A stretch of DNA of 64,000 nucleotides from Candidatus Falkowbacteria bacterium GW2011_GWF2_43_32 (GTDB lineage: Bacteria > Patescibacteriota > Patescibacteriia > Patescibacteriales > UBA12465): contig LCGL01000001.1 of NCBI GenBank assembly GCA_000999715.1, positions 67,139-131,138 of the forward strand. The letters run 5' to 3'. The first letter of the stretch is position 1, and each line of letters starts with the position of its first letter. Both the position numbers and the translations under genes were made by a program. Of this stretch, positions 34,874-52,809 are shown piece by piece. The notes below the pieces were generated by a model, which saw only the letters and a list, made by a program, of their open reading frames with translations, was not told the origin of the DNA and made no database searches.

Positions 34874-34886
34874 TGCGGAGAGAGGG
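34874..34886 (-). repeat. 13-nt copy of the tRNA-Ser 3' end (att-like remnant)
   Basis: TGCGGAGAGAGGG (plus strand) matches the 3' acceptor/T-stem end of the tRNA at 56709-56726. It is preceded by a terminator-like hairpin (34843-34870). Confidence 0.4.
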
Positions 34887-35020
34887 GGCGCACTGGGAAC
34901 GGTTATATTAAAATCATCATAAGAATTTATGAGCCCTAAGACCTGCCTAAAATAAAAAAGGATATTAATAGGCTACTTGATATTTTTACAAGATATAAAT
35001 ATTTTGTTATTATAATTAAT

Positions 35021-35548
35021 ATGGACAAAATCAATATCTATATAGATGGAAATAATTTATATCGCTCAGCCAAAGAGCTGGGCTTTGAGATTGATTACAA
35101 AAAATTTAGAGGTTGGCTTAGACAAAAATATAATCCAACTTTTGTTTATTTATTTATAGGATTAGTCCCCGAAAGAACAAATTTCTATGAACACTTACAA
35201 AAATGCGGCTATATTCTAGTTTTTAAACAAACAGTTTCTGTCGGCGAAAAAATAAAAGGCAATTGTGATGCAGAACTAGTTCTTAAAAGTATAAAAGATT
35301 ATTACACAAAGTCTTTTGATTCTTGCATTTTAATAACCGGGGATGGTGATTTTGGGTGTTTAGTTGAATTTTTAAAAGAAAACAAGTCTATAAATTGTAT
35401 TATTGCGCCAGATAGGGACAAGTGTTCTATTTTACTTAGAAATAAAAATACAGAAATCACTTTTTTGAATGAACACTATCATAAATTTTCTGGGGAAATA
35501 AAAAAAGCCCCCAATATGGACGTATCCACACCAGGGTCTCTTTCATAA
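35021..35548 (+). CDS. NYN (LabA-like, PIN-related) nuclease-domain protein
   Basis: 175 aa with conserved acidic motifs IYIDGNNLY, GNCDAELV and LITGDGDFGCLV typical of NYN domains. Confidence 0.75.
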   Translation: MDKINIYIDGNNLYRSAKELGFEIDYKKFRGWLRQKYNPTFVYLFIGLVPERTNFYEHLQKCGYILVFKQTVSVGEKIKGNCDAELVLKSIKDYYTKSFDSCILITGDGDFGCLVEFLKENKSINCIIAPDRDKCSILLRNKNTEITFLNEHYHKFSGEIKKAPNMDVSTPGSLS

Positions 35549-35629
35549 TGATGTTATTATTATAACATTAAAAACAAAAAAGTCAATATTATAATAAAAA
35601 TAACTCTAATATTAGAGTTATTTTTAATC

Positions 35630-35645
35630 TGCGGAGAGAGGGATT
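35630..35645 (-). repeat. 16-nt copy of the tRNA-Ser 3' end (att-like direct repeat)
   Basis: TGCGGAGAGAGGGATT versus TGCGGAGAGAGAGGGATT at 56709-56726, the same except for a GA dinucleotide indel. Same orientation as the tRNA and followed on the minus strand by a terminator hairpin (35601-35625). Confidence 0.5.
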
Positions 35646-35779
35646 GCAGGGCGGCTAAGCCGCCCTTTCTGCCTGCGTCGCTCGGAACTGCTAGTCTGCC
35701 TAACGGCAGTCTAGCGCTGCCTCGCTATCCTCGGCAGTGCGAACCCAAGGGTTCTCATCATATTCTTGCTCCCTTCAAC

Positions 35780-35815
35780 CAAACTAAAAACACCCTTACG
35801 GGTGTTTTTAGTTTG
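35780..35815. terminator. perfect 16-bp inverted repeat with a 4-nt loop (bidirectional terminator-like)
   Basis: CAAACTAAAAACACCC-ttac-GGGTGTTTTTAGTTTG. Confidence 0.5.
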
Positions 35816-35994
35816 ATAGCGGGCTACCTCGGGCTGGAACCGTAATTTCGGCAAGCCCAGCAAGGCTTTTCGGTGATTTTTTAAGACTTTAGAAAATAAG
35901 ATCCTCGTGCGCTATGGTTTTTCTTGAAAAGTGACAAAAGTGACACGAGTATTGATATAAAGGTTACAGGCAGGTGTAACCTAATTAAGTCAAT

Positions 35995-38697: not shown

Positions 38698-38709
38698 ATA
38701 TTCTAGGTT

Positions 38710-39390
38710 TTAGAAAATTTTAACCTCCCCTGTTTGATAATCCTTAGCAACATTATCAATTATTGCTTTATCTGTGATCTGAGATTTTTTGTCTAATGAG
38801 AATGCTTCTATAGATTTTAATGGCCTCCCTGCGTACTCCATAGTCTTATTAAGATAGCCAATGAACGATCCTGAATATCTATATCTTCTTATACAATCAT
38901 CAATACAAATATTTATTAAGTCATTATATCCTCGCCACCTATTTAGCTTATATCCTTCTATCCATTGGTTAATTAAAAATGGTATAAGTTGTTTTAGTTT
39001 TTGAATCGCAAACAAATTTCCTCTTTGGGCTAATCGTACCAAACTTATACTTATGCGATCGCAAATTTTTCTATCTTCTTGATCAATTTGCGATATAAAT
39101 GTATATAATTTCTCTTTGTAGGGATTAAGTACTAATATAACTTCGCTCGCATCGCTGTATTCATTTGATTGTTTCCTTTTTAATCCTTTCGACCACAACC
39201 TTTGAAATTGCCTGTCGAGATTAGCAGTAACTAAATCCCAATCTGGCTCACCGAATTCATTGGTGATATTATTTATTATGAATCGATATGATATATTACA
39301 TCGGTATTTAATCCAATTTGCGTTGAAAGACTTTGGTTGTTTTTTATCAAGGGAACGGTTAATGTTTCTAATTGCTTTTTCGAAATTCAT
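38710..39390 (-). CDS. hypothetical protein, possibly sigma-70 region-2-like
   Basis: 226 aa immediately upstream of the helicase (12-nt gap). The segment LAQRGNLFAIQKLKQLIPFLINQWIE...NDLINICIDDCIRRYRYSGSFIGYLNKTM loosely resembles sigma region 2. This is weak inference. Confidence 0.4.
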   Translation of the reverse strand: MNFEKAIRNINRSLDKKQPKSFNANWIKYRCNISYRFIINNITNEFGEPDWDLVTANLDRQFQRLWSKGLKRKQSNEYSDASEVILVLNPYKEKLYTFISQIDQEDRKICDRISISLVRLAQRGNLFAIQKLKQLIPFLINQWIEGYKLNRWRGYNDLINICIDDCIRRYRYSGSFIGYLNKTMEYAGRPLKSIEAFSLDKKSQITDKAIIDNVAKDYQTGEVKIF

Positions 39391-39527
39391 TAATTTTGTA
39401 CTTTCTTCTTATCAATTTCTTTTATTTTTTTATTTTTTATTTTTCGTATAATTTAAAATTGTTTTGAGAATTGCCCATCCTTTCCGTTGAGCAATTCTCA
39501 AGAACTTTAGACTAGGATTTAACCCTA

Positions 39528-39671
39528 TTACTTTCGATCAGTGTCGCCGCGTCCTGGTTTAGGGACTCTTTCAACTGTGGTCGTATTCGGCCTGCGACGA
39601 GCCTCGTCAACAGGAATAAACTCACCAGTTTTAGAATCTCTACCCAATAAAAATGACTTTGAATTGGACAT
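39528..39671 (-). CDS. unannotated small ORF (47 aa)
   Basis: ATG...TAA encoding MSNSKSFLLGRDSKTGEFIPVDEARRRPNTTTVERVPKPGRGDTDRK, which looks protein-like. Below the ORF-track size cut-off, and no clear RBS. Confidence 0.3.
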   Translation of the reverse strand: MSNSKSFLLGRDSKTGEFIPVDEARRRPNTTTVERVPKPGRGDTDRK

Positions 39672-39847
39672 AGTGGTCTAATGCTAAAATTTGAATGATC
39701 AGTGCAAATCATGTACAATACAAGTACTAAGTTATACTGTGCTGATTTTATTGAATACCGACCCAGAACCAAGGAAAAGGAATTCTAATTCAATGAACAC
39801 CTGAGTAAGCCACCAAATTTTGGTGGCTTATTTAGATTTTCAAATAA

Positions 39848-40063
39848 TTACTTCTTCTTTGTACGATTATAAGGCGACTGATTAACTGGTTTTAAACCAA
39901 CGCCGAGTTCAGAAGCTTTATTTTGTACACCACCAACTGGTCGACCAAGTTTAAAACCTATAACCCTGGTTGGCGTATTATCTTTCGCAAGCTGTTTGAG
40001 TTGTTTGATTTCTTCTGGCTTCCATTGCTTGCCAGCATTTCTTAGGTAATCTGGATTATTCAT
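39848..40063 (-). CDS. small DNA-binding-like protein (HTH/Myb-like pattern)
   Basis: 71 aa. The W..EE...L..L.....P...I...LGR....V..KA..LG pattern suggests a helix-turn-helix. Located directly downstream of the S24 repressor gene. Confidence 0.45.
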   Translation of the reverse strand: MNNPDYLRNAGKQWKPEEIKQLKQLAKDNTPTRVIGFKLGRPVGGVQNKASELGVGLKPVNQSPYNRTKKK

Positions 40064-40073
40064 ATTTTTAAAA

Positions 40074-40730
40074 TTAATTTTTTATAACATCGACGACCTT
40101 TCCATTAATAATAAATTGATCATCCTCGCCAATATAAATTGGCATATACTCGTGATCAGAATTAGCCTTAAGGATAATCCTGTTGTTCAATTTATCACGA
40201 TAAAATTCCTTTATAGTTGCTAGCCCATCGATAATCGCTAAAACTATTTCTCCATTGTTATAATTAGAAACCTCTCTATCAACCAAAACATAATCACCAC
40301 TTTCGATAGTTTTCCCGTTAACATCCGCCTGATTCATCGAATCTCCGTCGGCCTTAATAGCGAATAGACGATTTTTATTCCTTGGCAGAAGACTTGAAGA
40401 TATCTTTAAATAGTTTTCCACTTTCTGATCAGCATACGTAACGGCTGGTCCGCAATTAGCTGCTCCAACCACCGGAATAGCAAACAATGGGCTTTTACTA
40501 GAATGATTATATCCTTTCTTAACTAATTTTAAGATATTTTGTTCAAGATTTACCTGTATAAGCCCAGCTTTTTCCAACTGCTGAAGATGATATTTAGCAA
40601 TTTGAGGCTTCCCCTTAACTCCTAATAATTCGGCTATTTTTCTAAGACTCATTGACCCTATTTCAGGGGTAGAGGCAATAAGGTTTAATAATTGAGTTTG
40701 TAGTATGTTCATATGCTCTAATAATAGCAC
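40074..40730 (-). CDS. LexA/CI-like S24 peptidase-family repressor
   Basis: 218 aa with an N-terminal winged-helix (SLRKIAELLGV...YHLQQLEKAGLI) and a C-terminal S24 domain with GDSM (Ser nucleophile) and a downstream Lys (ATIKEF). Confidence 0.8.
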   Translation of the reverse strand: MLLLEHMNILQTQLLNLIASTPEIGSMSLRKIAELLGVKGKPQIAKYHLQQLEKAGLIQVNLEQNILKLVKKGYNHSSKSPLFAIPVVGAANCGPAVTYADQKVENYLKISSSLLPRNKNRLFAIKADGDSMNQADVNGKTIESGDYVLVDREVSNYNNGEIVLAIIDGLATIKEFYRDKLNNRIILKANSDHEYMPIYIGEDDQFIINGKVVDVIKN

Positions 40731-40756
40731 ACTATAGATTGTTTTGCAAGTCTTGT

Positions 40757-40795
40757 TGTCAAACTATTTGACATTTTACACTGAGGTGCTATAAT
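40757..40795 (+). promoter_or_regulatory. early promoter with overlapping operator-like palindrome (genetic-switch region)
   Basis: TTGACA-16 nt-TATAAT on the plus strand. The -35 lies inside the palindrome TGTCAAA-cta-TTTGACA (40757-40773), between the divergent repressor gene and the rightward genes. Confidence 0.5.
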
Positions 40796-40818
40796 GAATT
40801 TGTAAGTCAATAATTTAT

Positions 40819-41217
40819 ATGGATTATCAACTACAACTTAAGTCTTTTGAAGGAGAATTAGGGTTTAAACACAAAATCCTACAAATAACAGATATAACCC
40901 TTCACTCCTCTGATAGACAACCAACAAAATCAATTGGCAAAAAAATACGACAAGCATTTTCCCAGAAAAAGCCAGGCAGATTTTATGGATTTAAGATTCA
41001 AGAACCAACAGGAAAACAAAACTCCGTTGAAGCCGTCATGGAACTTGTTAAAAAAGACCCTGAATTAATGAAGGTGATTCAAGAAGAAGAAAAAAATGGC
41101 TACAGGATATTCATAGGCCTGCCTAAAGATGGTGTGCCTATACTACTAGGAGAAGACGCTAAAGAATTTATAAATAGTAAAAATGGCCAAAGAGTAATTA
41201 GAGGAATTAATCATTAA
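40819..41217 (+). CDS. hypothetical protein
   Basis: 132-aa ORF, first gene of the rightward transcription unit. No motifs recognised. Confidence 0.5.
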   Translation: MDYQLQLKSFEGELGFKHKILQITDITLHSSDRQPTKSIGKKIRQAFSQKKPGRFYGFKIQEPTGKQNSVEAVMELVKKDPELMKVIQEEEKNGYRIFIGLPKDGVPILLGEDAKEFINSKNGQRVIRGINH

Positions 41218-41415
41218 GCGGAAGTTTAATATAAAAACAATTTAATAAATGCGTAGTAAAAAGTAGAATAGAGTATCGCCTAAAAAACCATGCCTATTCC
41301 GCGCAAGAAATAGCTTTAAGATTTAATATCTTTGTCTGTTTCGTGTGTGGAATAGGCTTTTTGTTTGTCCATACATTAATTTATTAAATTACTTAATAAA
41401 TTAACGAATAATACT

Positions 41416-42690
41416 ATGGAGAAACTCCAATGGCACACAGTGCAAAAAAGAGTTAATGATCTTGTCCCTCAAGATGTTAACCCTAGAAAGATCAACGACA
41501 AACAAATGTCGGATCTAAAGAAAAGTTTGGCTAAATTCAATTTAGTTGAAATTCCCGCAATAGATTTTGATGAGAAAATCTTGGCTGGCCATCAAAGAAT
41601 AAAGGCCCTTCAGCTCCTTGGTCGAGGAGAGGAATTAATTGACGTTAGAATCCCTAATCGAAAGTTAACCGAAGACGAGGCTAAAAGATATCTTATTTCC
41701 AGTAACGCTTTAGGCGGTGACTGGGATTTTGAGAAGTTAAAGACGTTTGATTTAGACTTGTTAGTTGATATTGGTTTTGACCAAGTCGATTTATCTCATT
41801 TCTGGGACAAAGATTTAGAAGTAAAAGAGGAAGACTTTGACGTTGAGGAAGAACTTAAAAAAATTAAAACAGTAAAAACAAAGCCAGGCGATTTAATTTT
41901 TCTGGGTTCACATAGATTATTATGCGGGAGTTCGACTGACCCCGATAATCTTAGACGACTATTCGGCGAAGACAAAGCCTCAATGATTTATAGCGACCCA
42001 CCCTATAATATAAAGCTCGATTATTCCAAAGGTATCGGCGGAAAAAATGACTACGGCGGAAATGTCCAAGATAATAGAACTTACGAGGAATATAAAAAGT
42101 TTGTTAAAGACACGATGATTACCGCTCTTACAGTTACTAAGCCAGACTGTCACGTATTTTATTGGTGCGATCAAACCTATATTGGCCTTATACAAGAAAT
42201 ATATCGTGAGCTTGGTTTAATTAATAAACGGGTTTGTCTGTGGCTTAAGAATTCGCAAAACCCTACCCCTAAAATTGCCTTTAATAAGTGCTATGAACCA
42301 GCGGTTTATAGTGTTAAAGGTAAACCATATCTTAATCAAGCTATTCAGAACTACAACGAGGTCTTAAATAGGGAGTTAGGAACTGGAAACAGCCTATTTG
42401 AAGAAGTATTTGACCAGCTTGATATATGGCTTGTTAAACGCCTATCAGGGCAAAAATATGAACACGCCACCAGTAAACCACCCAAACTTCACGAGAAGGC
42501 CATACGTCGTTGCACTAAGCCAGGTGATATTATCCTTGATTCATTCTCTGGCTCAGCTAGCACTATGATTGCAGGAGAACAATTAAAGAGAAAAGTTTAT
42601 GCGATGGAGCTAGAGCCAATTTTCTGTGACTTGGCCATTAAAAGATACTACAAATTAACTGGTAGAAAGGAGAGGGTGGAACATGTCTAA
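41416..42690 (+). CDS. ParB-like nuclease domain fused to a DNA methyltransferase (beta-class N6A/N4C)
   Basis: 424 aa. N-terminal ParB/Srx-like region (NPRKI...ILAGHQRIKA), MTase motif IV SDPPYN, then motif I ILDSFSGSAST. This fusion is common in phages. Confidence 0.85.
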   Translation: MEKLQWHTVQKRVNDLVPQDVNPRKINDKQMSDLKKSLAKFNLVEIPAIDFDEKILAGHQRIKALQLLGRGEELIDVRIPNRKLTEDEAKRYLISSNALGGDWDFEKLKTFDLDLLVDIGFDQVDLSHFWDKDLEVKEEDFDVEEELKKIKTVKTKPGDLIFLGSHRLLCGSSTDPDNLRRLFGEDKASMIYSDPPYNIKLDYSKGIGGKNDYGGNVQDNRTYEEYKKFVKDTMITALTVTKPDCHVFYWCDQTYIGLIQEIYRELGLINKRVCLWLKNSQNPTPKIAFNKCYEPAVYSVKGKPYLNQAIQNYNEVLNRELGTGNSLFEEVFDQLDIWLVKRLSGQKYEHATSKPPKLHEKAIRRCTKPGDIILDSFSGSASTMIAGEQLKRKVYAMELEPIFCDLAIKRYYKLTGRKERVEHV

Positions 42691-43174
42691 AAAAAATAAA
42701 ATCCAAAATGTATTTTTGGAAGAACTAAAAAGAATTCCGATTGTGTTAGTGGCTTGTGAAAAATCAGGCCTATCTCGCAACAGTGTTTATCGCTGGAAAA
42801 AAGATGACAAAATTTTTTCAAAAGCGATGGACGAAGCTTTGGCTGAGGGCGAAGCGCTGGTTAATGATATGAGCGAAAGCCAACTACTAACTCTTATCAA
42901 AGAAAAGAATTGGCAAGCGATGAGCTTTTGGCTTAGACATCGTAATCCGCGATTTAGAGATAAGATTGAAGTTACTTCTAAAATAGAAGATTCGGAAGAA
43001 CTTACACCCTCACAAGCAGAAGTTGTCCGCCAAGCCTTAAAACTGGCCAGAATATTGCCAGTTGATGATCAATTAATTAATAACAAAAATAAATATGATA
43101 GAAAACAAAATGATTCCACAAGACTTAGTGGAACAAATGACCAAGGACAAGAAAGTAAGGACGGCGATAACTAA
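42683..43174 (+). CDS. terminase small subunit (probable)
   Basis: 163 aa with an N-terminal HTH (GLSRNSVYRWKKDD). Immediately upstream of and overlapping the large terminase gene. Confidence 0.5.
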   Translation: MSKKNKIQNVFLEELKRIPIVLVACEKSGLSRNSVYRWKKDDKIFSKAMDEALAEGEALVNDMSESQLLTLIKEKNWQAMSFWLRHRNPRFRDKIEVTSKIEDSEELTPSQAEVVRQALKLARILPVDDQLINNKNKYDRKQNDSTRLSGTNDQGQESKDGDN

Positions 43175-44564
43175 AGAAAGTTTTTCTTATTTCTTCCATT
43201 TCTACTACGCTCATTACGTTAAATATGCGACCGCTGATTTTCAAAAAGAGATAATTGGTTTAATCGAAAAAAGCGACAAAGATAGTTTATTTGTAGTTGC
43301 GTTTCGAGGTTCGGGAAAATCAACTATCGTAACGGCCGCTTATCCGATTTGGGCTATCTTAGGCAAACAAGAAAAAAAGTTTGTTGTTATTTTCTGCCAA
43401 ACCCAAGCGCAAGCTAAACAACACATGATGAATTTACGCCGTGAGCTTGAAGATAATGAATTACTGAAAAAAGACCTCGGCCCCTTTAGAGAAAACAGTG
43501 ACGAATGGGGTGCACAGTCAATTGTATTTTCCAATACGGACGCACGTATTACCGTCGCTTCAGTCGATCAAAGTATTCGTGGTATTAGGCACTATCAGTA
43601 TCGCCCAGACTTAGTTATCTGTGATGATGTTGAAGATATAAGTTCCACTAAAACTAGGGATAGCAGAAACAAAACATATCAATGGCTAAAAAGTGAAGTA
43701 ATACCTGCTGGGGATAGAAATACCAGATTAATAATAGTCGGAAATTTACTTCATGAAGATTCTCTGCTAATGCGACTTAAAGAAGAAAATGAAAAAGATA
43801 TCATTGATGGTAAATTTCTATATTTTCCATTGGTCGACAAAAAAGGAAAATGTCTTTGGCCAGGAAAATATCCAACTCAAAGTGACGTCGATAAAGAAAG
43901 AAAAAATGTCGGTAGTGAAATTACTTGGCAACAAGAATACCTACTTAATATTGTGCCGTCAGAAGATCAAGCTATATTTAAAGAGTGGATAAATTATTAT
44001 GACGAAATACCTGCTCGTCTAAAATTATATGGCGGTTACTCTTCTCACCTGGAAGTAAGAATTGGAATTGACCCAGCTATTTCTAAGAGTGATGTCGCCG
44101 ATTATACGGCTATGGTTCCTGGATTACTATACGAAACGCATACTGGGTATCGGCTCTATATTCTGCCTAAAATAATAAACAAGCGCTTGAGTTTTCCTGA
44201 AACTGTTGATACTTGCAAAACATTATATCAGAGCTACAAAAAAGATTATGAATACCCAAAGTTTGTTATCGAAGATGTGGCTTATCAAAAAGCCCTGCCC
44301 CAGCAACTACAAGCTGAAGGTATTCCTAATGTCATGACTACTAGACCTGGAAATCAAGATAAAAGAAGCAGGCTTGTAATACTGGCTAACATGATTAAAA
44401 CAGGACAGATCCTATTTCCTAGAGAAGGAGCCGAAGAACTAATCCAGCAAATAGTCCACTTTGGAGTGGAAAAGCATGATGATTTAGTTGATGCTTTCGC
44501 TAATTTAGCTCATAACATGCTTGAAAAACCACCCCGAACAGCCAGGTTCTATGTTATTGGTTAG
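43095..44564 (+). CDS. terminase large subunit
   Basis: 489 aa. Walker A FRGSGKST, Walker B DLVICDDVED, and a C-terminal RNase-H-like nuclease region with acidic residues (GIDPA..., HDDLVDA). The exact start is uncertain because it overlaps TerS. Confidence 0.85.
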   Translation: MIENKMIPQDLVEQMTKDKKVRTAITKESFSYFFHFYYAHYVKYATADFQKEIIGLIEKSDKDSLFVVAFRGSGKSTIVTAAYPIWAILGKQEKKFVVIFCQTQAQAKQHMMNLRRELEDNELLKKDLGPFRENSDEWGAQSIVFSNTDARITVASVDQSIRGIRHYQYRPDLVICDDVEDISSTKTRDSRNKTYQWLKSEVIPAGDRNTRLIIVGNLLHEDSLLMRLKEENEKDIIDGKFLYFPLVDKKGKCLWPGKYPTQSDVDKERKNVGSEITWQQEYLLNIVPSEDQAIFKEWINYYDEIPARLKLYGGYSSHLEVRIGIDPAISKSDVADYTAMVPGLLYETHTGYRLYILPKIINKRLSFPETVDTCKTLYQSYKKDYEYPKFVIEDVAYQKALPQQLQAEGIPNVMTTRPGNQDKRSRLVILANMIKTGQILFPREGAEELIQQIVHFGVEKHDDLVDAFANLAHNMLEKPPRTARFYVIG

Positions 44565-44689
44565 CAGTATTTCCTTTAATATTAAAGGAAAAGTTATCGA
44601 CAAGTTGCCAACAGCTAGCTGCTTAGCAAAAGCTTAAAAGTGTGTCATTAATGGAGGTATAGATTTAACTAATAATTAACTATAATCAT

Positions 44690-45976
44690 ATGCCTCCATT
44701 ATTAGACGTCCCTTTAAAGTATTGCCTGTATGCTAGAAAAAGCACTGAATCAGACGAGCGACAAGCCCTGTCAATTGATTCTCAAGTTAAGGAAATGCTC
44801 CAAATTGCTGAACGGGAAAACTTAGAAATTGTTGATATTCGGAGAGAGTCAAAATCAGCTAAAGACTCTGGTAACCGACCAATATTCAAAGAGCTTATCA
44901 AAGATATAACGGAAGAAAAATTTAACTCTATTATTACTTGGGCACCAGATAGACTATCGAGAAATGCTGGCGACTTAGGATCACTGGTTGATTTAATGGA
45001 TGAGAAAAAATTAATGAGTATTCGCACCTTTGGTCAAACATTTAGTAATTCGCCAAACGAAAAATTTCTGCTCATGATTTTATGTTCTCAAGCTAAACTA
45101 GAAAATGACAACAGAGGCATAAATGTAAAAAGAGGTTTGAGAGCAAGATGTGAAATGGGCTTATGGCCGACTTGTCCGCCAACGGGTTACTTTAAAGAAA
45201 AACGGGTTGATCATAAAGGACAATGCTTAGTGGATCCAGATAGAGGTCACGTTATAAGACAAATGTTTGAAAAAGTCGCTTATGAGAAATGGTCTGGCCG
45301 AAAGATTTATAATTGGTTACGATTTGATTTAAAATTTAGAACAGCTCTGGGTAAAAAACATTTAAGTCTAGGCAATATCTACCGCCTGCTAGAAAATACC
45401 TTCTACTATGGCCCCTTCGAATACCCAAGAGGCAGTGGCAATTGGTATCAGGGAAAACATGAGCCGATAATTACAAAAGAAGTGTTTGATTTGGTTCAGG
45501 ATCAGATGAAAAATTCTCAATTAGTTAGACGAGAAAATATTGAGTTCGCTTTTACTAAAGTCATGACTTGTGGTTTATGTGGTTCAGGAATATCAGCTAC
45601 CGAAAAATTTAAGAAACTAAAAAATGGCGGTTATAACCGTCATATTTATTATGGATGTACTAAAGCGAAAGATAAAAATTGTAAATCTGGCTATATCAGC
45701 GAAGAAGATTTAATTAAGCAATTACAAAAACAGGTTGAGAAATTAGATTTTAAAAAACTACCAGTTCAAGATAAAATTGAAGGAGAGATAAAAAGATTTA
45801 AGAAATTTCAAATGATGGCAACTGGAAAAAATCAAAACATCGACGTAAGTGATGTCGATGTTAAAAATTACATTAAATTTTTGCTAAAAGATGGTGATGA
45901 TCAAGAAAAGCGAGAATTGCTTACATGTTTAAATGGGGAGATTTTATTGAGTAACAAAACAATAACAATTAACTGA
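44690..45976 (+). CDS. large serine recombinase (integrase)
   Basis: 428 aa. Resolvase catalytic N-domain (YARKSTESDERQALSIDSQ, Ser nucleophile context), a recombinase domain, a zinc-ribbon (CGLCGSG...YYGC) and a coiled-coil tail. Confidence 0.9.
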   Translation: MPPLLDVPLKYCLYARKSTESDERQALSIDSQVKEMLQIAERENLEIVDIRRESKSAKDSGNRPIFKELIKDITEEKFNSIITWAPDRLSRNAGDLGSLVDLMDEKKLMSIRTFGQTFSNSPNEKFLLMILCSQAKLENDNRGINVKRGLRARCEMGLWPTCPPTGYFKEKRVDHKGQCLVDPDRGHVIRQMFEKVAYEKWSGRKIYNWLRFDLKFRTALGKKHLSLGNIYRLLENTFYYGPFEYPRGSGNWYQGKHEPIITKEVFDLVQDQMKNSQLVRRENIEFAFTKVMTCGLCGSGISATEKFKKLKNGGYNRHIYYGCTKAKDKNCKSGYISEEDLIKQLQKQVEKLDFKKLPVQDKIEGEIKRFKKFQMMATGKNQNIDVSDVDVKNYIKFLLKDGDDQEKRELLTCLNGEILLSNKTITIN

Positions 45977-45993
45977 TATTATATCTAAAATAT

Positions 45994-46992
45994 TTATTTA
46001 CTTTCTGATAACATTCTAATAATTTTTAATTTTAATTTCTTTTCATTCCCGTGACTAATCATTCCCAGATAAGAACTTAGCGACTCATCTTTGTAGTTAT
46101 TCTCTTTTAATTTCCTAAACATACGTTTTTTAGTTGATCTTCTTAAAACTCGAAATTTAGAAAAACTAGTCCAGCCCAAGAAATCAACACCAGAATTTAT
46201 TGTTTTAATAAAAATTTTATTTGGATGTATTTCTAAATTTAACCTTGCCCCAAGAAAACGCTCAATTACAGGAATTTTATTCTCGAGCCAATCTCTGCTA
46301 TCTGAAAGAATTACAAAATCGTCAGCATATCGAATATAAAAATTTGTCTTAATATGATGCTTAACAAATTGATCAAATTCATTAAGATAAACATTGGCAA
46401 AAAGCTGGGAAGTCAGATTGCCGAGCGGCAAGCCCTTGCTCGTTTCAAAGTTAAAACTATCAATGACTTTTGTTAGTAACCAAATTATGTTCTCGTCTGG
46501 AATGTAACCTTTAATAATATTTATTAATATTTTGTGATCAATGCTAGCAAAAAATTTTCTAATATCCCCTTTAAGCACCCAACAAGATCTCGTATTATTT
46601 TTACTGACTTTTAAAAATAGTTGATTAAATCTGGTAATCGCCTTATGAGTTCCTTTATCTAAGCGACAAGAATAGCTATCAAAAATAAAAGTCCTATCAA
46701 AAAATGGATAGAGCTGGCGATAAATTGCATGATGCAGGAGTCGGTCACGGACAGTAGCTTTATGAATATTTCTAGTTTTAGGATCGTACACCTTAAAAGC
46801 CTTATAACCGCCGTGTTCGTATTTATGATATACTAAATCGTGATGCAGATCTAAAATATTATCCATTAGCCTGGTACGAAATTCTTGCACATCTTTGCGC
46901 TTGCGTTTACCTAACAAAAACTCCTGCCAAGCCTCTAGTAGATTTTCTAAATTTATAATATCTTCAAATTTATGAGTCAATCTAATTTTCAT
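45994..46992 (-). CDS. DGR reverse transcriptase
   Basis: RT motifs include LPLGNLTSQLFANVYL (DGR-type [LIV]GxxxSQ) and YIRYADDFVIL (YxDD). About 332 aa with no maturase or endonuclease extension. The ORF track begins at TTG 47022 and runs through a G15 tract; I place the start at ATG 46992, preceded by AGAGGT. Confidence 0.9.
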   Translation of the reverse strand: MKIRLTHKFEDIINLENLLEAWQEFLLGKRKRKDVQEFRTRLMDNILDLHHDLVYHKYEHGGYKAFKVYDPKTRNIHKATVRDRLLHHAIYRQLYPFFDRTFIFDSYSCRLDKGTHKAITRFNQLFLKVSKNNTRSCWVLKGDIRKFFASIDHKILINIIKGYIPDENIIWLLTKVIDSFNFETSKGLPLGNLTSQLFANVYLNEFDQFVKHHIKTNFYIRYADDFVILSDSRDWLENKIPVIERFLGARLNLEIHPNKIFIKTINSGVDFLGWTSFSKFRVLRRSTKKRMFRKLKENNYKDESLSSYLGMISHGNEKKLKLKIIRMLSESK

Positions 46993-47361
46993 ACCTCTAA
47001 TTCTACCCCCCCCCCCCCCCAAAAATCAAAAGATTCCTACCTATTGTGGCATACCTATTTTAAACTGATACCAAAAGAGCACCGTTTCAGCCTTGGTGTT
47101 AAAATTGATAATATTTTTATTGAAATAATAGAGATGGTTTCTGGGGCTTTATACGTAAACAAAGAAGAAAAGGCGTTATACATAAAGACCGCCATCAGAA
47201 AAACAGATACTTTAAAACTATTATTCCTAATGCTCTGGGAAACTAAATCACTTGATAACAAAAAGTATTTAATGATATCTGAAAAAATTGACGAAATTGG
47301 ACGTATGCTCGGCGGTTGGTTAGGGCAAATTGTAAAACAAAACTCCTCTATCAAAAGATAG
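46972..47361 (+). CDS. Avd-like accessory variability determinant (four-helix-bundle / 23S-rRNA-IVS protein family)
   Basis: Helical ~105-aa core (...KEHRFSLGVKIDNIFIEIIEMV...KLLFLMLWETKSLDNKKY...IDEIGRMLGGWLGQIVKQ) resembles Avd/IVS four-helix proteins. Divergent to the RT. The start is either ATG 46972, reading through the C15 tract as PPPPP, or TTG 47044. Its own terminator hairpin is at 47338-47376. Confidence 0.7.
   Translation: MSQSNFHTSNSTPPPPQKSKDSYLLWHTYFKLIPKEHRFSLGVKIDNIFIEIIEMVSGALYVNKEEKALYIKTAIRKTDTLKLLFLMLWETKSLDNKKYLMISEKIDEIGRMLGGWLGQIVKQNSSIKR
47006..47020. repeat. C15 (G15 on the minus strand) homopolymer
   Basis: Fifteen consecutive C residues counted directly. The tract lies inside the long avd ORF and 14-28 nt upstream of the RT ATG. 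Confidence 0.95.
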
Positions 47362-47377
47362 GGGAGTTTTTTGTGAG

Positions 47378-47507
47378 ACTTGCGAAACGACGAAAGCAAA
47401 CCCGCCGCTACGATCCCACTTGTTATCAGGGTTGTTATAGTTCGTGTTCAACCAAGAACCATTGTCATTGCGATTAGCGTTGAGCAGTTTAGGATCGCCG
47501 TCAGAAT
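47378..47507 (-). repeat. DGR template repeat (TR)
   Basis: 130 nt homologous to both VRs and read on the minus strand. Rich in AAC/AAT codons (translated ...DGDPKLLNANRNDNGSWLNTNYNNPDNKWDRSGGFAFVVSQVS) and not part of a full-length gene. VR differences fall at its adenines. Confidence 0.85.
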
Positions 47508-47747
47508 TATGCAAAATACCGCCCGTTACACTGCCCTTCGAATACTCGAATAGGCTGAATATTATTCGGCATCATAATGCCATAGTGTTTTGCACCAAGT
47601 TTCGTTAAATAACACCATTATTTTACTCTACCTATAGCCTTAGCCGGAGATATTCTCAAAATAGTAGCATTCATCACAGTGGTCATCAACCTTAATCGAT
47701 GACATATTCACTTTAACTGATATTATTTTAGCATATTCATAAATTTT

Positions 47748-47789
47748 ACAAAAAAAAATAACCCCGAATTGCTTGTGCAATCCGAGGTT
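47748..47789 (-). terminator. rho-independent terminator of DGR target gene 2
   Basis: Minus strand AACCTCG-gattgcacaagcaatt-CGGGGTT followed by ATTTTTTTTT. The one stem difference from the paralog becomes a G-U pair. Confidence 0.6.
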
Positions 47790-47841
47790 AAAAATTCAAA
47801 GGGCTAAAAACTAAAGTCTAAAGACTCAAAGAATCAAAAGA

Positions 47842-48495
47842 CTAAGAGTTAGAAACTTGCGAAACGACGAAAGCAAACCCGCCGCTACGACCCCACTTGC
47901 CATCAGGGCTGCTCCAGCCCGCGCCCAACCAAGAACCATCGCCATCGCGAAAAGCGCTGAGCAGCCTAGGATCGCCGCCAGAATCTTTAATTGGTTCATG
48001 CATTGCAACGATCCAATAAAGTCCCATGGCTTCCAGTTCTTTATCAGAAAGCTTCTCTCTGATGAGGCAGGCTACTTCGGCGTTTGGCGTAGAAAATTTG
48101 CGGTTCTTAGCTTCCTTACGGATTGTTTTAGTAATACGATCACTATCGCTGAAGAATTCTCCTTTTAAAACAGCGATTTCGTAAGTAATGCCGCTGGTGG
48201 GTTTAAAGCTTCTTGAGCGTAAAACGCTTTTAGCATAATCTCCAACACGGAAGCCTTTGCCTTCTAAGCGGGCAATCCATTGTTCACCAGTTGTACCATC
48301 TGAAATGACGGAGAAACGAATAACGTTGTCTTTTTCAGTCCACTTAGATTTAATAACTGAGATTTGTAGTTCACCAGAATTCATCATTCTAACCGCTTCT
48401 TCAGGCTCTGTTATACCTGTTTGGGTCATGATGTTTTTTACCATGGCGTTCAATTTGCCAGTTTCGATACCAGAAATTAAAAATTCACTTTTCAT
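47842..48495 (-). CDS. DGR variable (target) protein 2, adjacent to the TR
   Basis: 217 aa, paralog of 32591-33250. The C-terminal region aligns to the TR with changes at TR Asn codons. No signal peptide is evident. Confidence 0.85.
   Translation of the reverse strand: MKSEFLISGIETGKLNAMVKNIMTQTGITEPEEAVRMMNSGELQISVIKSKWTEKDNVIRFSVISDGTTGEQWIARLEGKGFRVGDYAKSVLRSRSFKPTSGITYEIAVLKGEFFSDSDRITKTIRKEAKNRKFSTPNAEVACLIREKLSDKELEAMGLYWIVAMHEPIKDSGGDPRLLSAFRDGDGSWLGAGWSSPDGKWGRSGGFAFVVSQVSNS
47855..47984 (-). repeat. DGR variable region VR2
   Basis: 130 nt aligning with the TR. About 20 mismatches are at TR adenines and 1 elsewhere (TAT to TGG third base) by hand alignment. The 3' 36 nt are identical to the TR. 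Confidence 0.85.
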
Positions 48496-48561
48496 GTAAC
48501 CTCCTTGCGCTATTTTGCGCTATTTTATTTCCCTATTCCGAGAAGGAGCTATAACCATTGT

Positions 48562-48610
48562 GGTCACAGCCAGAAAATGGCTAAATATAAACCATCTTTT
48601 GGCTGTGACC
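48562..48610 (-). promoter_or_regulatory. conserved 5' leader stem-loop of DGR target gene 2
   Basis: Same 10-bp GGTCACAGCC/GGCTGTGACC stem as at 33319-33379, with a shorter apical part. Confidence 0.35.
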
Positions 48611-48651
48611 AATTTCGCAAGCTAGTTTTTAAAGGCCTATTTTATGATGTA

Positions 48652-48680
48652 ATTATATCATAATAGACACATTTTGTCAA
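48652..48680 (-). promoter_or_regulatory. sigma-70-type promoter of DGR target gene 2
   Basis: Minus strand TTGACA-17 nt-TATAAT, at the same position as in the paralog. Confidence 0.6.
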
Positions 48681-48795
48681 CAATAATTGGCAAAAACTAA
48701 GCTTAAATAACAAATATTTATTTAATGTTAGCAATTTTTAAGTATAATGGAACTTAATGAAAACGAGAATTCCTTAAATTCTTAGTCTAAATCTC

Positions 48796-49749: not shown

Positions 49750-52700
49750 TTATAATTTACCTCCAGAAATATCAAAAAATTTTTCAAAGAAATTGGTCAA
49801 CTTAGTTAAAACAGTTTCTCTTTTCTTGCTACGTTCGCCATCTGGAGAAAACCGCGATACAGGCGGCAATACTTTTGTAATTGCCGTACCAGTCGTGGCC
49901 ACATGACCATCACGAAACGCATTTTTTATAAATGAATAAGCGGCGTCACGTTCGAGACCCTCTTTTTCAATAATATGATCTAATTCTTCAACCTTTTTTT
50001 GTTCTACAAATTTTTGCCAATCATCATCGACCACGGAATGAACATCAAGAGAAGTAATAAATTGGTTAATAAGGTCTTTTTTATTTCTAAGCTCAACACT
50101 TGAATCGATTGCCTTGTTAATATCAATTAAAATCTCTCTATTCTTGGTGTGATCTTGGTGATATTTCTTAACAAGACTTAAAACATAGTCGATATTAATT
50201 TCGACTTGCTTAATAAGCTCCATCTCAAAAACGACGTCATCATTAACATTTTCTTTTTCGTTTTCATTAGTCTTGCGGAGTTCATTATACAAATCAATAT
50301 ACATGCTGTGATAATCTTGAATATCATATTCTGTAAAAATTTCATCAGCAGCAAACTCGTCAAAAGTTGTTAAAATATTGCGTAAACGCAAAATATTACT
50401 ATAAAGCTTAATAAATTCTTTTTGAGCTTGCTCACTATCAATTCTAACGCCAACGGGAAATTTCTCCATTAATTCGTCTACTAAACTGGCATATCCTCGA
50501 ACTTCCTTATCGCCATTTTTATAACCGTTGTAATATTCTGCGTATGTTTTAAGTAAAACAATTCCGCATGCTTTTTTATCACCAAAAAGAGCAATAGCTT
50601 CGTTTGTAGCCTTTTCTAAATTTCGAAAACAAACAATATTACCAAAAGTTTTAACGCTATTTAAGATACGATTAGTTCGAGAGTAGGCCTGTAACAAACC
50701 ATGCAAACGCATATTCTTGTCTACCCAAATTGTATTAAGAGTAGTTGCATCGAACCCTGTTAAAAACATATTAACGACAATAAGAATATCTATTTCTCTG
50801 TTCTTCACTCTTTGACTAACATCTTTATAGTAATTTTGAAACTTATCAGACGATGTGTCGTACGAAGTGCCGAACATGGAGTTGTAGTCGACAATAGCAT
50901 TTTCTAAAAAATCTCTGGAACTAACATCTAGACCGCTAGTGTCTTCCGAATTTTCATCAATCATGCCATCAGCATCTTCATCGTTTACTCCAAAACTATA
51001 AATCGTAGCGACTTTAAGTCGCTTATCACTGGGAAGTTCGGCGAACTGTTTTTTAAATTCGGCGTAATATTTCTTAGCTACATCAATAGAAGATACGGCA
51101 AAAATAGAATTAAAGCCTGCCAGTCTTCGGTCTTTAATTTTGTAGAAACTATTTCGCTTTGTCTTTTGATCAAAGTGTTCACAAATATAACTAACGATAT
51201 TTTTTAAACGTTCCGGAGCCGCAAGAATTGCTTCTCGGTCTATATCACTGACTTTTTTGTCTTCAATATTTTCAGCCTCATGAACAGTGGAAATATAATC
51301 CACCTTGAAAGGTAAAACATTTTTATCTGCAATAGCGTTAACAATAGTATATGTATGTAATTTTTCGCCAAAAGCTTGTTCTGTAGTTCTTAAATCTGGG
51401 CGACCACCAGAAGAAGCATTAGCGGCAAAAATAGGTGTACCCGTAAAGCCAAAAAGGTGATAATTATTAAATGCTTTAGTAATTGCTGAATGCATATCGC
51501 CAAACTGACTACGATGGCACTCATCAAAAATAATAACAATATGCCCATTAAAAATAGCATGATTTCCATTACGACCTATAAACCTGTCTAGCTTCTGAAT
51601 GGTTGTAATAATTATTCGGGAATTTGAATCCTCTAACTGTTTTTTTAAGACTGAGGTACTGGTACTGCTATTGGCCGCACCTTTTTCAAATTTATCGTAT
51701 TCACGCATCGTTTGATAATCCAAATCTTTACGATCAACAACAAATAAAACCTTATCAACATAAGATAATTTACTGGCTAGTTGTGCGGTTTTAAAACTCG
51801 TTAAGGTTTTTCCAGAACCAGTGGTATGCCAAATATATCCGCCAGCCTCGATTGTTCCGAGTTTCTTATAATTTGTGCTTACTTCAATTCGACTTAATAT
51901 CTTTTCTGTTGCAACAATTTGATAGGGCCTCATCACTAGCAAAAATCGATCAGTAGTAAATACGCAGTATTTTGTTAAAATATTTAAAAGTGCATGTTTG
52001 GCAAAAAAAGTTTTTGAAAAATCAATAAGGTCAGTGATTGGACTATTTGTTGCATCTGCCCACCAACTAGTAAATTCAAAACTATTACTTGTTCTTTTTC
52101 CTTTTTTAATTGCACCTTCGCTCGACTCTTTAATATGCTCTGAGCGCGTTGTATTACTGTAATATTTTGTGTGTGTTCCGTTGGAAATTATAAATAGCTG
52201 CACATATTCAAAAAGTCCAGAGGAAGCCCAAAAACTCTCTCTTTGATAGCGATTAATCTGATTAAAGGCTTCTTGAATAGCTACTCCACGACGTTTTAAC
52301 TCAATATGCACAAGCGGTAAGCCATTTACGAGAACCGATACGTCGTATCTATTAGCTCGCTGTCCATCTTCAGTGGCGTACTGATTAATAACCTGTAAAC
52401 TATTATCATGAATATTATCTTTTTTAATAAGATAGATATTTTTGATAGATCCGTCATCACGAGTTAAATTTTTTATATGATCCTCTTGTATTATTGATGT
52501 TTTGTCTTCAATGCTTTGATTTGGGTTTGATATCTCGTTTGCAAAAAAACGATCCCATTCAGAATCAGTAAAAGTAAACTCGTTTAGCTTTTCTAATTGT
52601 TTTCGTAAATTACTAATAAGATCGCCATCTGAAGTAATTGCTACATAATCATAACCCTGAGCTTCTAGCTGCTTAATAAATGCACCTTCAAGTTCAGCCT

Positions 52701-52809
52701 CACTTTGATAATGAGTCACTCTTTTAGTGTCAGCGACATATTCGGCAACAACGGTGCTTTGAGTATTTTCCGCAACTAAATTGTATTTGTTATTAGCTGA
52801 CATATTCAT
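49750..52809 (-). CDS. hsdR: Type I restriction enzyme R subunit
   Basis: 1019 aa with an N-terminal nuclease region (D...ELK: VHIELKRRG), SF2 motor motifs TGSGKTLT and FDECHRSQ, and a long helical C-terminus. Confidence 0.9.
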   Translation of the reverse strand: MNMSANNKYNLVAENTQSTVVAEYVADTKRVTHYQSEAELEGAFIKQLEAQGYDYVAITSDGDLISNLRKQLEKLNEFTFTDSEWDRFFANEISNPNQSIEDKTSIIQEDHIKNLTRDDGSIKNIYLIKKDNIHDNSLQVINQYATEDGQRANRYDVSVLVNGLPLVHIELKRRGVAIQEAFNQINRYQRESFWASSGLFEYVQLFIISNGTHTKYYSNTTRSEHIKESSEGAIKKGKRTSNSFEFTSWWADATNSPITDLIDFSKTFFAKHALLNILTKYCVFTTDRFLLVMRPYQIVATEKILSRIEVSTNYKKLGTIEAGGYIWHTTGSGKTLTSFKTAQLASKLSYVDKVLFVVDRKDLDYQTMREYDKFEKGAANSSTSTSVLKKQLEDSNSRIIITTIQKLDRFIGRNGNHAIFNGHIVIIFDECHRSQFGDMHSAITKAFNNYHLFGFTGTPIFAANASSGGRPDLRTTEQAFGEKLHTYTIVNAIADKNVLPFKVDYISTVHEAENIEDKKVSDIDREAILAAPERLKNIVSYICEHFDQKTKRNSFYKIKDRRLAGFNSIFAVSSIDVAKKYYAEFKKQFAELPSDKRLKVATIYSFGVNDEDADGMIDENSEDTSGLDVSSRDFLENAIVDYNSMFGTSYDTSSDKFQNYYKDVSQRVKNREIDILIVVNMFLTGFDATTLNTIWVDKNMRLHGLLQAYSRTNRILNSVKTFGNIVCFRNLEKATNEAIALFGDKKACGIVLLKTYAEYYNGYKNGDKEVRGYASLVDELMEKFPVGVRIDSEQAQKEFIKLYSNILRLRNILTTFDEFAADEIFTEYDIQDYHSMYIDLYNELRKTNENEKENVNDDVVFEMELIKQVEINIDYVLSLVKKYHQDHTKNREILIDINKAIDSSVELRNKKDLINQFITSLDVHSVVDDDWQKFVEQKKVEELDHIIEKEGLERDAAYSFIKNAFRDGHVATTGTAITKVLPPVSRFSPDGERSKKRETVLTKLTNFFEKFFDISGGKL

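Follow-up and report, generated by a model that had tools for sequence, protein, structure and literature searches.

Where the divergent avd and reverse transcriptase (RT) genes of a DGR meet in the genome of Candidatus Falkowbacteria bacterium GW2011_GWF2_43_32, a run of C residues occupies the junction, and the question it raises is whether it acts, as the original prediction suggested, as a phase-variable switch on DGR activity. The window referred to throughout is the whole 64-kb stretch of DNA that was analysed. With a probability of roughly 0.6, we regard the tract as a hypermutable contingency simple-sequence repeat (SSR) at the control point of CPR-type DGRs, which would switch Avd and probably tune RT. 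Because it lies within the start of avd and beside the putative RT promoter, it would probably operate as a random on/off switch of the mutator.

The locus combines an RVT_1-type RT, an Avd protein (PF22296) and TR/VR differences at template adenines, and is thereby a DGR (Table 1). Since VR1 and VR2 differ from the template repeat (TR) only at TR adenines, the window's DGR has been active. It sits in a prophage-like island. The avd gene is inverted relative to TR and RT in a CPR host, which is the B3 architecture found in 90% of CPR DGRs (Wu et al. 2018, PMC5758913), and target, TR, inverted avd and RT follow the B3 layout of that work. The survey of Wu et al. (PMC5758913) does not contain the word "homopolymer", nor does it describe the repeat, the head-to-head start overlap or variation in the avd frame. 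The closest genomes are all Patescibacteria MAGs, an identical RT protein is on record in JGI 3300025154, and an exact-flank search in IMG/VR returned no match.

Table 1. Features of the DGR locus (positions in the window)
Feature	Position	Strand	Details
DGR reverse transcriptase	45994..46992	-	332 aa; PF00078 RVT_1 E=8.4e-27
avd (accessory variability determinant)	46972..47361	+	129 aa in window version; PF22296 bAvd E=8e-12
Head-to-head overlap, avd/RT coding starts	46972..46992	.	21 nt; from sequence
-10-like hexamer TAGAAT (putative)	47000..47005	-	abuts repeat; 7 nt before RT ATG
Simple-sequence repeat (SSR)	47006..47020	.	C15 avd sense, G15 RT sense
Junction without the 26 nt	47020..47021	.	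absent from window, present in three assemblies
-35-like hexamer TTGATT (putative)	47024..47029	-	18 nt from TAGAAT, window version only
In-frame TTG	47044..47046	+	only canonical start 3' of tract
Template repeat (TR)	47375..47507	-	TR/VR mismatches all at TR adenines
Target gene 1, 217 aa	47842..48495	-	VR1 ~47852-47984
Target gene 2, 219 aa	32591..33250	-	VR2 ~32601-32733; 14 kb away

Inspection of the sequence gave exactly 15 consecutive C residues at 47006-47020, G15 on the RT strand, located 14-28 nt upstream of the RT ATG (46992, minus strand); count and coordinates agree with the original prediction. The longest other C or G run in the whole 64-kb window is 5, so the tract is real and far beyond chance. 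It lies 11 codons into avd and, on the RT strand, immediately precedes the -10-like box, which places a slippable tract in a 5' coding region or promoter, as in contingency loci. In the avd sense it reads ACC CCC CCC CCC CCC CAA, or T-PPPP-Q, which makes four Pro codons and not the five initially reported. The frame from ATG 46972 does run through the tract, as a 129-aa ORF that reaches the bAvd domain, and TTG 47044 is indeed the sole in-frame canonical start beyond it.

The exact state of the junction differs among assemblies of the same genome. In three other public assemblies (JGI Ga0209417_1000024, NCBI DNKM01000006.1 and ENA k141_441680), otherwise 100% identical to the window, 26 extra nucleotides (GACAATTTCAACTAGCCCCGCTTCTT, avd sense) separate the tract from AAAAATC. 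Translated, this segment reads RQFQLAPLL, with which helix 1 of Avd begins, and it includes a TTGAAA hexamer; over the 13 kb compared between the JGI contig and the window, the sole difference lies at the tract. The tract itself measures 14 in JGI and, in NCBI, 8 before an NN gap; the ENA contigs stop after 11 and 13 G and the Logan SRR3309375 contig after 15 G, such that two assemblies (ENA and Logan) break inside it. In silico, with the 26 nt in place, C14 is out of frame from the ATG and would give the peptide MSQSNFHTSNSTPPPPDNFN followed by a stop (the JGI allele, L001), while C12, C15 or C18 would join the ATG frame. In view of the 26 nt in three assemblies and the breaks in two, the "C15, in frame" state of the window is unconfirmed: the statement that the tract is in frame at its present length holds for the window's own junction but not for C14 with the 26 nt. 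The earlier warning about homopolymer assembly was justified, as only the window, out of five assemblies, has this exact junction, and an assembly artefact may account for the 26-nt-shorter form, which is seen in no other assembly. As the full explanation of the tract, an artefact is rejected, given 142 loci from many projects with lengths that were reproduced independently. Assemblers evidently break or mis-join contigs at this site, and the contig breaks are only indirect evidence of length heterogeneity within a population.

The original prediction had proposed looking for a tract at the same place in homologous DGRs, and one was found. Among 154 related CPR/Patescibacteria DGR loci, in which a repeat was sought within 120 nt upstream of RT, 142 (92%) have an SSR where avd and RT diverge, namely poly-G in 128 (length 6-15, mode 9-10), (GT)n in 9 and (GA)n in 5, with an overall range of 6 to 27 nt. 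The flanks (905 kb) contain only three G/C runs of at least 8, and the enrichment at the avd/RT position is roughly 1000-fold across these 142 loci, which represent many CPR lineages and assemblers. Loci with GT and GA are interspersed among the poly-G loci by RT similarity. The position of the repeat is, to judge from these loci, conserved, and its sequence is not. All three motifs are G-rich on the RT/TR strand and never on the opposite one. Two loci (L081 and L092) have avd and RT apart from each other; in both, the repeat accompanies avd, with an ATG ORF still ahead of it.

The start of avd is critical to what a change in repeat length would do. On the sequence evidence, ATG 46972, the complement of the RT His7 codon, is the true start. 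The corresponding ATG is in frame with avd in 9/9 repeat-less relatives and in three phage-borne relatives. The antisense ORF from the complement of RT His7 to the repeat is stop-free in 103/103 junctions where 67 would be expected, and the other two frames are stop-free in 17 and 8 junctions. In the relatives, TTA/CTA account for 0/64 Leu codons at RT codons 2-6 versus 29% elsewhere in RT, by which the antisense avd frame stays open. Selection keeps the ORF between ATG and repeat open. As a separate observation, a conserved RT His codon supplies the avd ATG "for free" on its complementary strand, and this counts against the contingency reading.

The avd gene shows a recurrent layout composed of the ATG, about 11 codons, the repeat as Pro codons, 3-6 further codons, and a first helix with the motif LP(I/L)(I/L)Q...Y..W. 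The PF22296 bAvd match scores above the curated cut-off, and its profile begins at the LP motif. A start at TTG 47044 would delete this conserved beginning of helix 1, which bears out the earlier remark that it would trim the first helix. Moreover, a TTG precedes the LP motif in 36% of out-of-frame versus 48% of in-frame loci; being no commoner where it would be needed, it is merely a Leu codon. We rejected a start at TTG 47044 or another downstream codon on account of the loss of helix 1 and its LP motif, and of the 56/127 repeat-bearing junctions that have no canonical start at all. Public gene callers mis-start the gene here: JGI has an avd of 75 aa, and NCBI one of 105 aa that begins at the TTG. 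An SD core occurs in only 5/45 large ORFs of the window, so its absence is uninformative, and this argument was dropped.

With the ATG as the true start, the claim that a change of one nucleotide would frameshift Avd is supported, and 28% of the unique repeat-bearing junctions (36/127) have the ATG in frame; the other 72% do not, as opposed to the repeat-less relatives (9/9 in frame; Fisher p=2.6e-5). Where the frame relation was scored (n=107), the values 0/+1/-1 were 27/51/29, i.e., 27 junctions in frame, 51 one nucleotide too long and 29 too short. Tracts of G6-G8 and dinucleotide repeats are likewise mostly out of frame, for which reason sequencing error is not the explanation for the out-of-frame lengths. 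Decayed DGRs were also rejected, since the avd ORF is uninterrupted in 83/84 out-of-frame loci, and a poly-Pro linker was ruled out because the frame is not conserved across junctions.

Length differences are found directly between sequences that are otherwise the same. L035 (G9) and L116 (G10) have 0 mismatches over 4115 nt, and L042/L065 (G11) and L125 (G12) have 0 mismatches over 5074 nt. L017 and L091 differ by one GT unit between identical 200-nt flanks, and identical RT proteins accompany unequal tracts in L043 (G11) versus L121 (G13) and in L058 (G10) versus L059 (G9). Length polymorphism in identical or near-identical sequences, a hallmark of contingency loci, is thus present in at least four pairs, and in silico the unit changes toggle between an intact and a truncated frame. 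The repeat is, by these comparisons, mutating faster than its flanks. Independent assemblies of one population give equal lengths (L003=L004=L082; L018=L019), which indicates that switching is not fast enough to blur consensus sequences. Altogether, the conserved position, the change of motif, the scatter of frames, the intact avd and the length-only differences support the slipped-strand contingency reading of the original prediction; from them we infer reversible, high-frequency switching within a population, together with any effect on expression.

In the proposed mechanism, replication slippage would add or remove a single repeat unit. Of every three length classes, one would join the ATG to the Avd frame and two would lead to a short peptide. 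According to PMC6182149, bRT, Avd and the DGR RNA are necessary and sufficient for cDNA synthesis; as Avd is needed with RT for this step, out-of-frame lengths would silence mutagenic retrohoming and in-frame lengths would restore it. The outcome would be on/off heterogeneity that is heritable yet reversible. Within the window's subclade, the spacer from a TTGnnA -35-like box to a TAnnnT -10 box, in a leaderless layout, would also be filled by the tract, whose length should then tune RT transcription as well.

The sequences around the repeat are consistent with such a promoter in part of the family. TAGAAT, 7 nt ahead of the RT ATG, would have the layout of a leaderless mRNA. A TAnnnT at offset 0 after the repeat occurs in 31/130 junctions, the window included (2.1 expected), and in 21 of these 31 it lies exactly 7 nt from the RT ATG; the pattern is missing from about three quarters of junctions. 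In the window, TTGATT-18-TAGAAT matches the consensus at 9/12 positions, a quality of site that chance alone would produce 1.3 times. The other assemblies have TTGAAA as their -35-like element, 5 nt before the tract, with a 19-nt spacer at G14. Relatives have TTGnnA boxes 5-8 nt before the repeat and inferred spacers of 12-21 nt, the box being clear only in some subclades and weak or unclear outside a few. In one relative (L005), G12 provides a 17-nt spacer and an in-frame avd together, and in 35/130 loci no RT ATG lies downstream of the repeat. The suggestion that the tract may alter the RT leader or promoter spacing thus finds support in the window's subclade, where the tract abuts the -10-like hexamer.

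The same promoter-like sequences might be taken to mean that the repeat is mainly transcriptional, acting as a rheostat on the RT promoter, or on both of the divergent promoters, either as their spacer or as an upstream element, with its passage through avd incidental and Avd made from a non-canonical codon after the repeat. The TAnnnT-N7-ATG arrangement that adjoins the repeat in one junction out of four, the TTGnnA boxes with their inferred spacers, and a promoter score that the window reaches but the G14 allele does not would all fit. We nevertheless consider this quite improbable: the -10 pattern is missing elsewhere, the repeat goes with avd rather than RT where the two genes are separated, the ORF from ATG to repeat is kept open in all 103 junctions, repeat-less relatives always use the upstream ATG, and there is no conserved alternative start. 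A role as a G-rich RNA or DNA element in the DGR reaction, such as an Avd/RT binding site or a structure-forming tract in the TR-to-RT transcript, would explain why all three motifs are G-rich on one strand only, and PMC6182149 describes Avd binding by RNA downstream of TR in Bordetella phage. The tract, however, is ~355 nt downstream of TR, past the antisense avd gene; G, GT and GA repeats have no common structure; their length varies from 6 to 27 nt; an Rfam search for a known RNA family at the tract gave nothing at threshold; and repeat-less relatives, phage-borne ones included, have apparently complete cassettes, all of which makes such an element very unlikely. An IMH or other DGR targeting element was rejected on the same distance from the TR end.

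Programmed recoding would act on RNA rather than by heritable switching: stuttering of RNA polymerase, or ribosomes slipping on CCC-C or on AC/CU repeats, would yield some full-length Avd at any DNA length and keep its level low compared with RT. Ribosomes are known to be prone to +1 shifts at CCC-C, and they stall on poly-Pro. Among the junctions the in-frame class shows no excess (27 versus 51 and 29), and most consensus genomes would consequently be OFF, a result that also fits RNA-level or ribosomal slippage; tract lengths peak at 9-10 and not at the values that would be in frame, the commonest class (51/107) needs a +1 shift, and avd is intact in out-of-frame loci. Programmed frameshift sites, on the other hand, keep one frame relation, whereas 0, +1 and -1 all occur here. 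For a polymerase to stutter on them, the out-of-frame tracts of G6-G8 are rather short, and rC:dG hybrids slip poorly. In addition, DNA-level length differences are observed directly between otherwise identical sequences, and replacement by dinucleotides is better explained by replication slippage. We thus consider recoding unlikely. That the repeat has no function at all, being a mutational hotspot that evolves neutrally, a Pro linker of low complexity or an artefact of sequencing or assembling homopolymers, has little to recommend it beyond the error-proneness of homopolymers, the disagreement or breakage of assemblies at the tract and the unique junction of the window. This explanation seems highly improbable in view of the roughly 1000-fold enrichment at one position, the independently reproduced lengths and the change of motif with position kept; a mere linker would stay in frame, and the same frame scatter is seen in short tracts and dinucleotide repeats, neither of which is prone to such errors.

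The contingency reading places the DGR repeat beside several known systems. Campylobacter, Neisseria, Haemophilus and Helicobacter possess poly-G/C slipped-strand contingency loci in 5' coding regions. Like these loci (for reviews see, e.g., PMC3315296), the DGR has a G/C homopolymer or short repeat a few codons past the start, where a one-unit change shifts the frame, with a length that is polymorphic between near-identical genomes and an intact downstream ORF. Unlike them, the gated gene would be a hypermutation accessory subunit and not a surface or restriction-modification gene, the hosts are CPR/Patescibacteria and not pathogens, and the tract is shared with the promoter region of a divergent partner. 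Repeats also occupy promoter spacers, as in hifA/hifB of H. influenzae, (TA)n, porA and opc of N. meningitidis, poly-G/C, and fim of Bordetella, poly-C. As in such promoters (see also PMC2791445), the tract of the window's subclade lies between -35-like and -10-like hexamers of a putative RT promoter, at the junction of two divergent genes, and inferred spacers scatter around 17 nt. In contrast to them, the DGR tract is also coding sequence of the opposite gene, and its promoter is assigned by consensus only, in about a quarter of the family. Programmed frameshifting or transcriptional slippage is known from dnaX, prfB and IS elements. Such recoding sites (cf. PMC5574713) share with the DGR a slippery homopolymer that separates the start codon from the functional portion of the reading frame, but their frame relation is fixed and a stimulator is usually present, whereas the DGR repeats show all three relations and a varying DNA length. 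The contingency loci of coliphages T2/T4, as described in a preprint (bioRxiv 10.1101/2025.10.21.683753), are hypermutable repeats with reversible frameshifts in mobile-element genes, likewise with proposed bet-hedging; they differ in that, to judge from the abstract, no DGR is involved.

In keeping with the original view that phase-variable control of a DGR had not been described, full-text literature searches and the survey of Wu et al. gave no description of an SSR of this kind in a DGR. There is about an even chance that most inverted-avd CPR DGRs are under the control of a further, separate hypermutation device, a slippery repeat in the overlapping avd and RT 5' ends that switches Avd translation stochastically and, in some lineages, also tunes a leaderless RT promoter. 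Were this so, targeted protein hypermutation would itself be phase-variable, as two-tier bet-hedging, and two localized hypermutation strategies, contingency loci and DGRs, would be joined in one device. The state of the switch would then be readable from counts of tract length in metagenomic reads, and the distribution of tract lengths relative to VR diversity offers a testable read-out that is independent of culture. Little is known about the regulation of DGR mutagenesis, and the DGRs of CPR bacteria are numerous and very diverse; an on/off repeat conserved within avd would account for the way in which hosts with small genomes limit the cost of a mutator and yet keep it available.

The count of 15 consecutive C residues between the divergent avd and RT genes was confirmed directly, as was the minus-strand RT start, and a scan of all 64 kb of the window (41.5% G+C) found no other C or G run longer than 5. 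In the avd frame the tract is translated as T-PPPP-Q and not, as first proposed, as PPPPP. The VRs of both target genes depart from the TR at TR adenines only, and the window cassette is a complete DGR. Its avd gene points the opposite way from the TR and RT, an architecture ("B3") that the cassette shares with the CPR DGRs of Wu et al. (PMC5758913), where it accounts for 90% of CPR DGRs.

Coordinates of the DGR cassette and neighboring features in the window
Feature	Position	Strand	Details
Homopolymer tract	47006-47020	plus (as C)	exactly 15 C
RT gene	ATG 46992 to 45994	minus	332 aa; PF00078, E=8e-27
avd ORF	ATG 46972 to 47361	plus	129 aa; PF22296 bAvd, residues 28-118, E=8e-12
TR	about 47375-47507	minus	
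DGR target gene 1	47842-48495		C-terminal VR
DGR target gene 2	32591-33250		C-terminal VR
Shine-Dalgarno regions, targets 1 and 2	48496-48525; 33251-33280		AAGGAGG
Target gene 1-TR spacer	47746-47837		A9 run, 47750-47758
Second target block	32443-33450		about 1 kb, with upstream region
First target block	47705-48681		
Prophage-like island	about 33750-48500		DGR at edge
rpsD	31754-32335		island flank
Terminase large subunit	43095-44564		
Serine recombinase	44690-45976		
hsdR	49750-52809		

The second target block lies 14 kb off and is 77% identical to the first. The island is flanked by rpsD on one side and by a type I restriction-modification system (hsdR, hsdS and hsdM) on the other, and codes for Bro-N, an NYN nuclease, a 900-aa helicase, an S24 LexA-like repressor and an N6/N4 methyltransferase, in addition to the terminase and recombinase. 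Strong Shine-Dalgarno sequences precede both target genes; a core of at least 4 nt occurs in just 5 of the 45 large window ORFs, compared with 5.7% of random 15-mers. The use of this signal seems rare in this organism, yet it is present at the DGR targets. Several Rfam sRNA matches in the target gene 1-TR spacer all score far under the gathering thresholds. The plus strand of the whole window contains 14,800 C versus 11,775 G, a strong asymmetry consistent with the minus-strand location of most genes or with one replichore.

RT-based scans retrieved 160 related loci (RT identity 57-93%; designated by L-numbers), mostly from groundwater and sediment metagenomes. Every named host is a Patescibacteria/CPR MAG, the closest (91%) being a Candidatus Falkowbacteria MAG. 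A tract at the same place in homologous DGRs had been suggested as a check. Upstream of the RT, 60 nt or more of sequence was available for 154 loci, and in 142 of these a simple repeat occurs no more than 120 nt from the RT start: poly-G in the RT sense in 128 (length 6-15, mode 9-10), (GT)n in 9 (15-27 nt) and (GA)n in 5 (11-21 nt). Across 905 kb of flanks, G/C runs reach a length of 8 or more only 3 times, and non-AT dinucleotide repeats total 9. Ordering by RT similarity does not set the GT and GA loci apart from the poly-G loci, among which they are interspersed; repeat-less loci, L074 and L130 among them, have an interrupted tract and 86% identity to G9/G10 loci. Extra sequence of about 220 nt in L081 (2985-3204) and about 115 nt in L092 (2886-3000) lies between avd and RT, and in both the repeat remains next to avd. 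The L081 insert contains inverted-repeat-like GGAGG/CCTCC segments. What the family conserves is a repeat at this position, not a particular sequence.

The repeat itself is evidently changing faster than all surrounding sequence. The tract is the sole difference over 4115 nt between L035 (G9) and L116 (G10); L042/L065 (G11) and L125 (G12) are identical across 5074 nt; and a single GT unit, between identical 200-nt flanks, distinguishes L017 from L091. RT proteins are identical in L043 (G11) and L121 (G13) and in L058 (G10) and L059 (G9), and the GT repeat measures 15 nt in L015 and 21 nt in L090, at 98% RT identity. In 8 of 162 loci the sequence stops no more than 30 nt from the tract, as it does in the ENA and Logan contigs of the window genome.

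Assemblies of that same genome, retrieved through exact-protein look-ups in public data, are 100% identical to the window across nearly its whole length, with differences at the tract only; for the JGI contig Ga0209417_1000024 it is the only difference over 13 kb. In the RT sense, this contig reads ...GAAGAAGCGGGGCTAGTTGAAATTGTC-G14-TAGAAT. DNKM01000006.1 (NCBI GCA_003489845.1; L171/L180) shares this flank and continues with G8-NN and a gap; in ENA ERZ27254744 (L172/L181) one contig ends with the JGI-type flank and G11 and another starts G13-TAGAAT; and a Logan SRR3309375 contig (L173) starts G15-TAGAAT, such that the gap or contig ends fall exactly within the tract. In the window, G15 is fused to TTTTT beyond a missing segment of 26 nt, the product of which, RQFQLAPLL, begins Avd helix 1. 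The original statement that C15 is in frame thus holds for the window's own junction; with the 26 nt restored, C12, C15 or C18 would be in frame, and the C14 of the JGI contig does not join the ATG to the Avd frame (peptide MSQSNFHTSNSTPPPPDNFN*). A long tract is genuinely present in this genome, and in this respect is no assembly artefact; the window's flank and exact tract length are doubtful, its in-frame C15 state being either a rare allele or a mis-join over a hard-to-assemble homopolymer. Gene-caller products in public assemblies are 75 or 105 aa for avd and 290 aa for RT; together with the gaps and contig ends, these lengths indicate that annotation of this DGR family is systematically distorted at the tract.

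The presence of ATG 46972 is by itself uninformative, because the same three bases, read on the other strand, are the conserved RT His7 codon. Four tests nevertheless show that this ATG serves as the avd start. An upstream ATG in the avd frame is found in all nine distinct repeat-less relatives, in seven as the His7 complement. The antisense ORF from ATG (or GTG) to the repeat is stop-free in 103 of 103 unique junctions, versus 67 expected from the RT-wide frequency of antisense stops; of the remaining antisense frames, one is open in 17 junctions and one in 8. The Leu codons TTA and CTA, which are antisense stops, are absent from RT residues 2-6 (0 of 64 Leu codons) and supply 29% of the Leu codons in the rest of the RT. 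In L081 and L092, an ATG-initiated ORF still precedes the avd-side repeat. Three phage-borne relatives exhibit a clean in-frame ATG 3-7 codons ahead of an (L/I)PI(I/F) motif. The conserved motif at the N terminus of Avd, LP(I/L)(I/L)Q..(Y)..W, begins 3-6 codons past the repeat, at the beginning of the Pfam profile. Past the tract, TTG 47044 is indeed the sole canonical start in frame; it was rejected as the avd start, since its use would remove the LP motif.

Among 127 unique repeat-bearing junctions, an upstream ATG is in the avd frame in 36, and only a GTG or TTG in 8; in 27 the only start (TTG/GTG/ATG) comes after the repeat and before the core of the LP motif, in most cases as a Leu codon of the motif, and 56 lack any canonical start in frame. 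Start availability differs between repeat-bearing and repeat-less loci (Fisher's exact test, p=2.6e-5). These counts, and the single-unit differences between otherwise identical loci, support the proposal that a change of one nucleotide would frameshift Avd. Where there is a single candidate ATG, 27 junctions keep the phase, 51 exceed it by one nt and 29 fall short of it by one nt; the in-frame tract length is mostly 9. The avd ORF beyond the repeat is unbroken in 83 of 84 out-of-frame loci, which are therefore not dead cassettes. Sequencing error was rejected as the source of the out-of-frame lengths, since G6-G8 and dinucleotide repeats lose the frame as frequently as long tracts do, and tract lengths recur in independent assemblies.

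On the RT side, a TAnnnT hexamer (RT sense) abuts the repeat in 31 of 130 junctions, versus 2.1 expected, in 21 of the 31 exactly 7 nt from the RT ATG, a geometry that would fit the -10 box of a leaderless mRNA; the window reads G15-TAGAAT-TAGAGGT-ATG. In several subclades a TTGnnA hexamer lies 5-8 nt ahead of the repeat, giving putative spacers of 12-21 nt. Within the window clade, the spacer measures 17 nt in L005 (G12), where avd is in frame, and 19 nt in the JGI allele (G14). A consensus scan called TTGATT-18-TAGAAT in the window and no promoter in the JGI allele; the call alone is weak, because about one such match is expected by chance. The RT promoter would be part of the model in about a quarter of the family. 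The RT ATG is absent after the repeat in 35 of 130 loci. Subclades that lack it include L058/L059 and the group of L010, L025, L031, L087, L088 and L101. The candidate RT start in these subclades is a TTG, located ahead of the repeat or completed after "tt" by the tract's first G, with the repeat read as Gly codons; a 3-nt length difference between L058 and L059 preserves this RT frame. In such lineages the phase-variable partner may be the RT.

The best-supported model is a contingency repeat within the 5' end of avd, and the comparisons support the original interpretation. Its main rival, expression of avd through RNA-polymerase or ribosomal slippage, is consistent with the lack of enrichment of in-frame lengths, but is at odds with the presence of all three frame relations and with the length polymorphism seen at the DNA level. 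Replication slippage and slippage during expression could act jointly. Several of the results contradict each of three further readings: a role at the promoter alone, a structural role of the nucleic acid, and a repeat without function.

Repeat-based phase variation and DGRs are each well known already. In keeping with the original remark on novelty, full-text literature searches found no description of a repeat inside a DGR cassette, or of phase-variable DGR control, and the word "homopolymer" is absent from the B3-defining survey (PMC5758913); Paul et al. 2017, the principal study of CPR DGRs, may contain an earlier mention. The novelty appears to lie in the coupling of a repeat switch to a DGR, conserved over a large CPR family, in a head-to-head gene overlap. 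Under the contingency model, replication slippage at the repeat would shift the ATG into or out of the Avd frame, and in some lineages repeat length would also alter the spacing of the RT promoter. For the DGR of Bordetella phage, cDNA synthesis requires the RT-Avd complex and the DGR RNA (PMC6182149). If that requirement for Avd applies here too, the repeat would set mutagenic retrohoming on or off, heritably yet reversibly.
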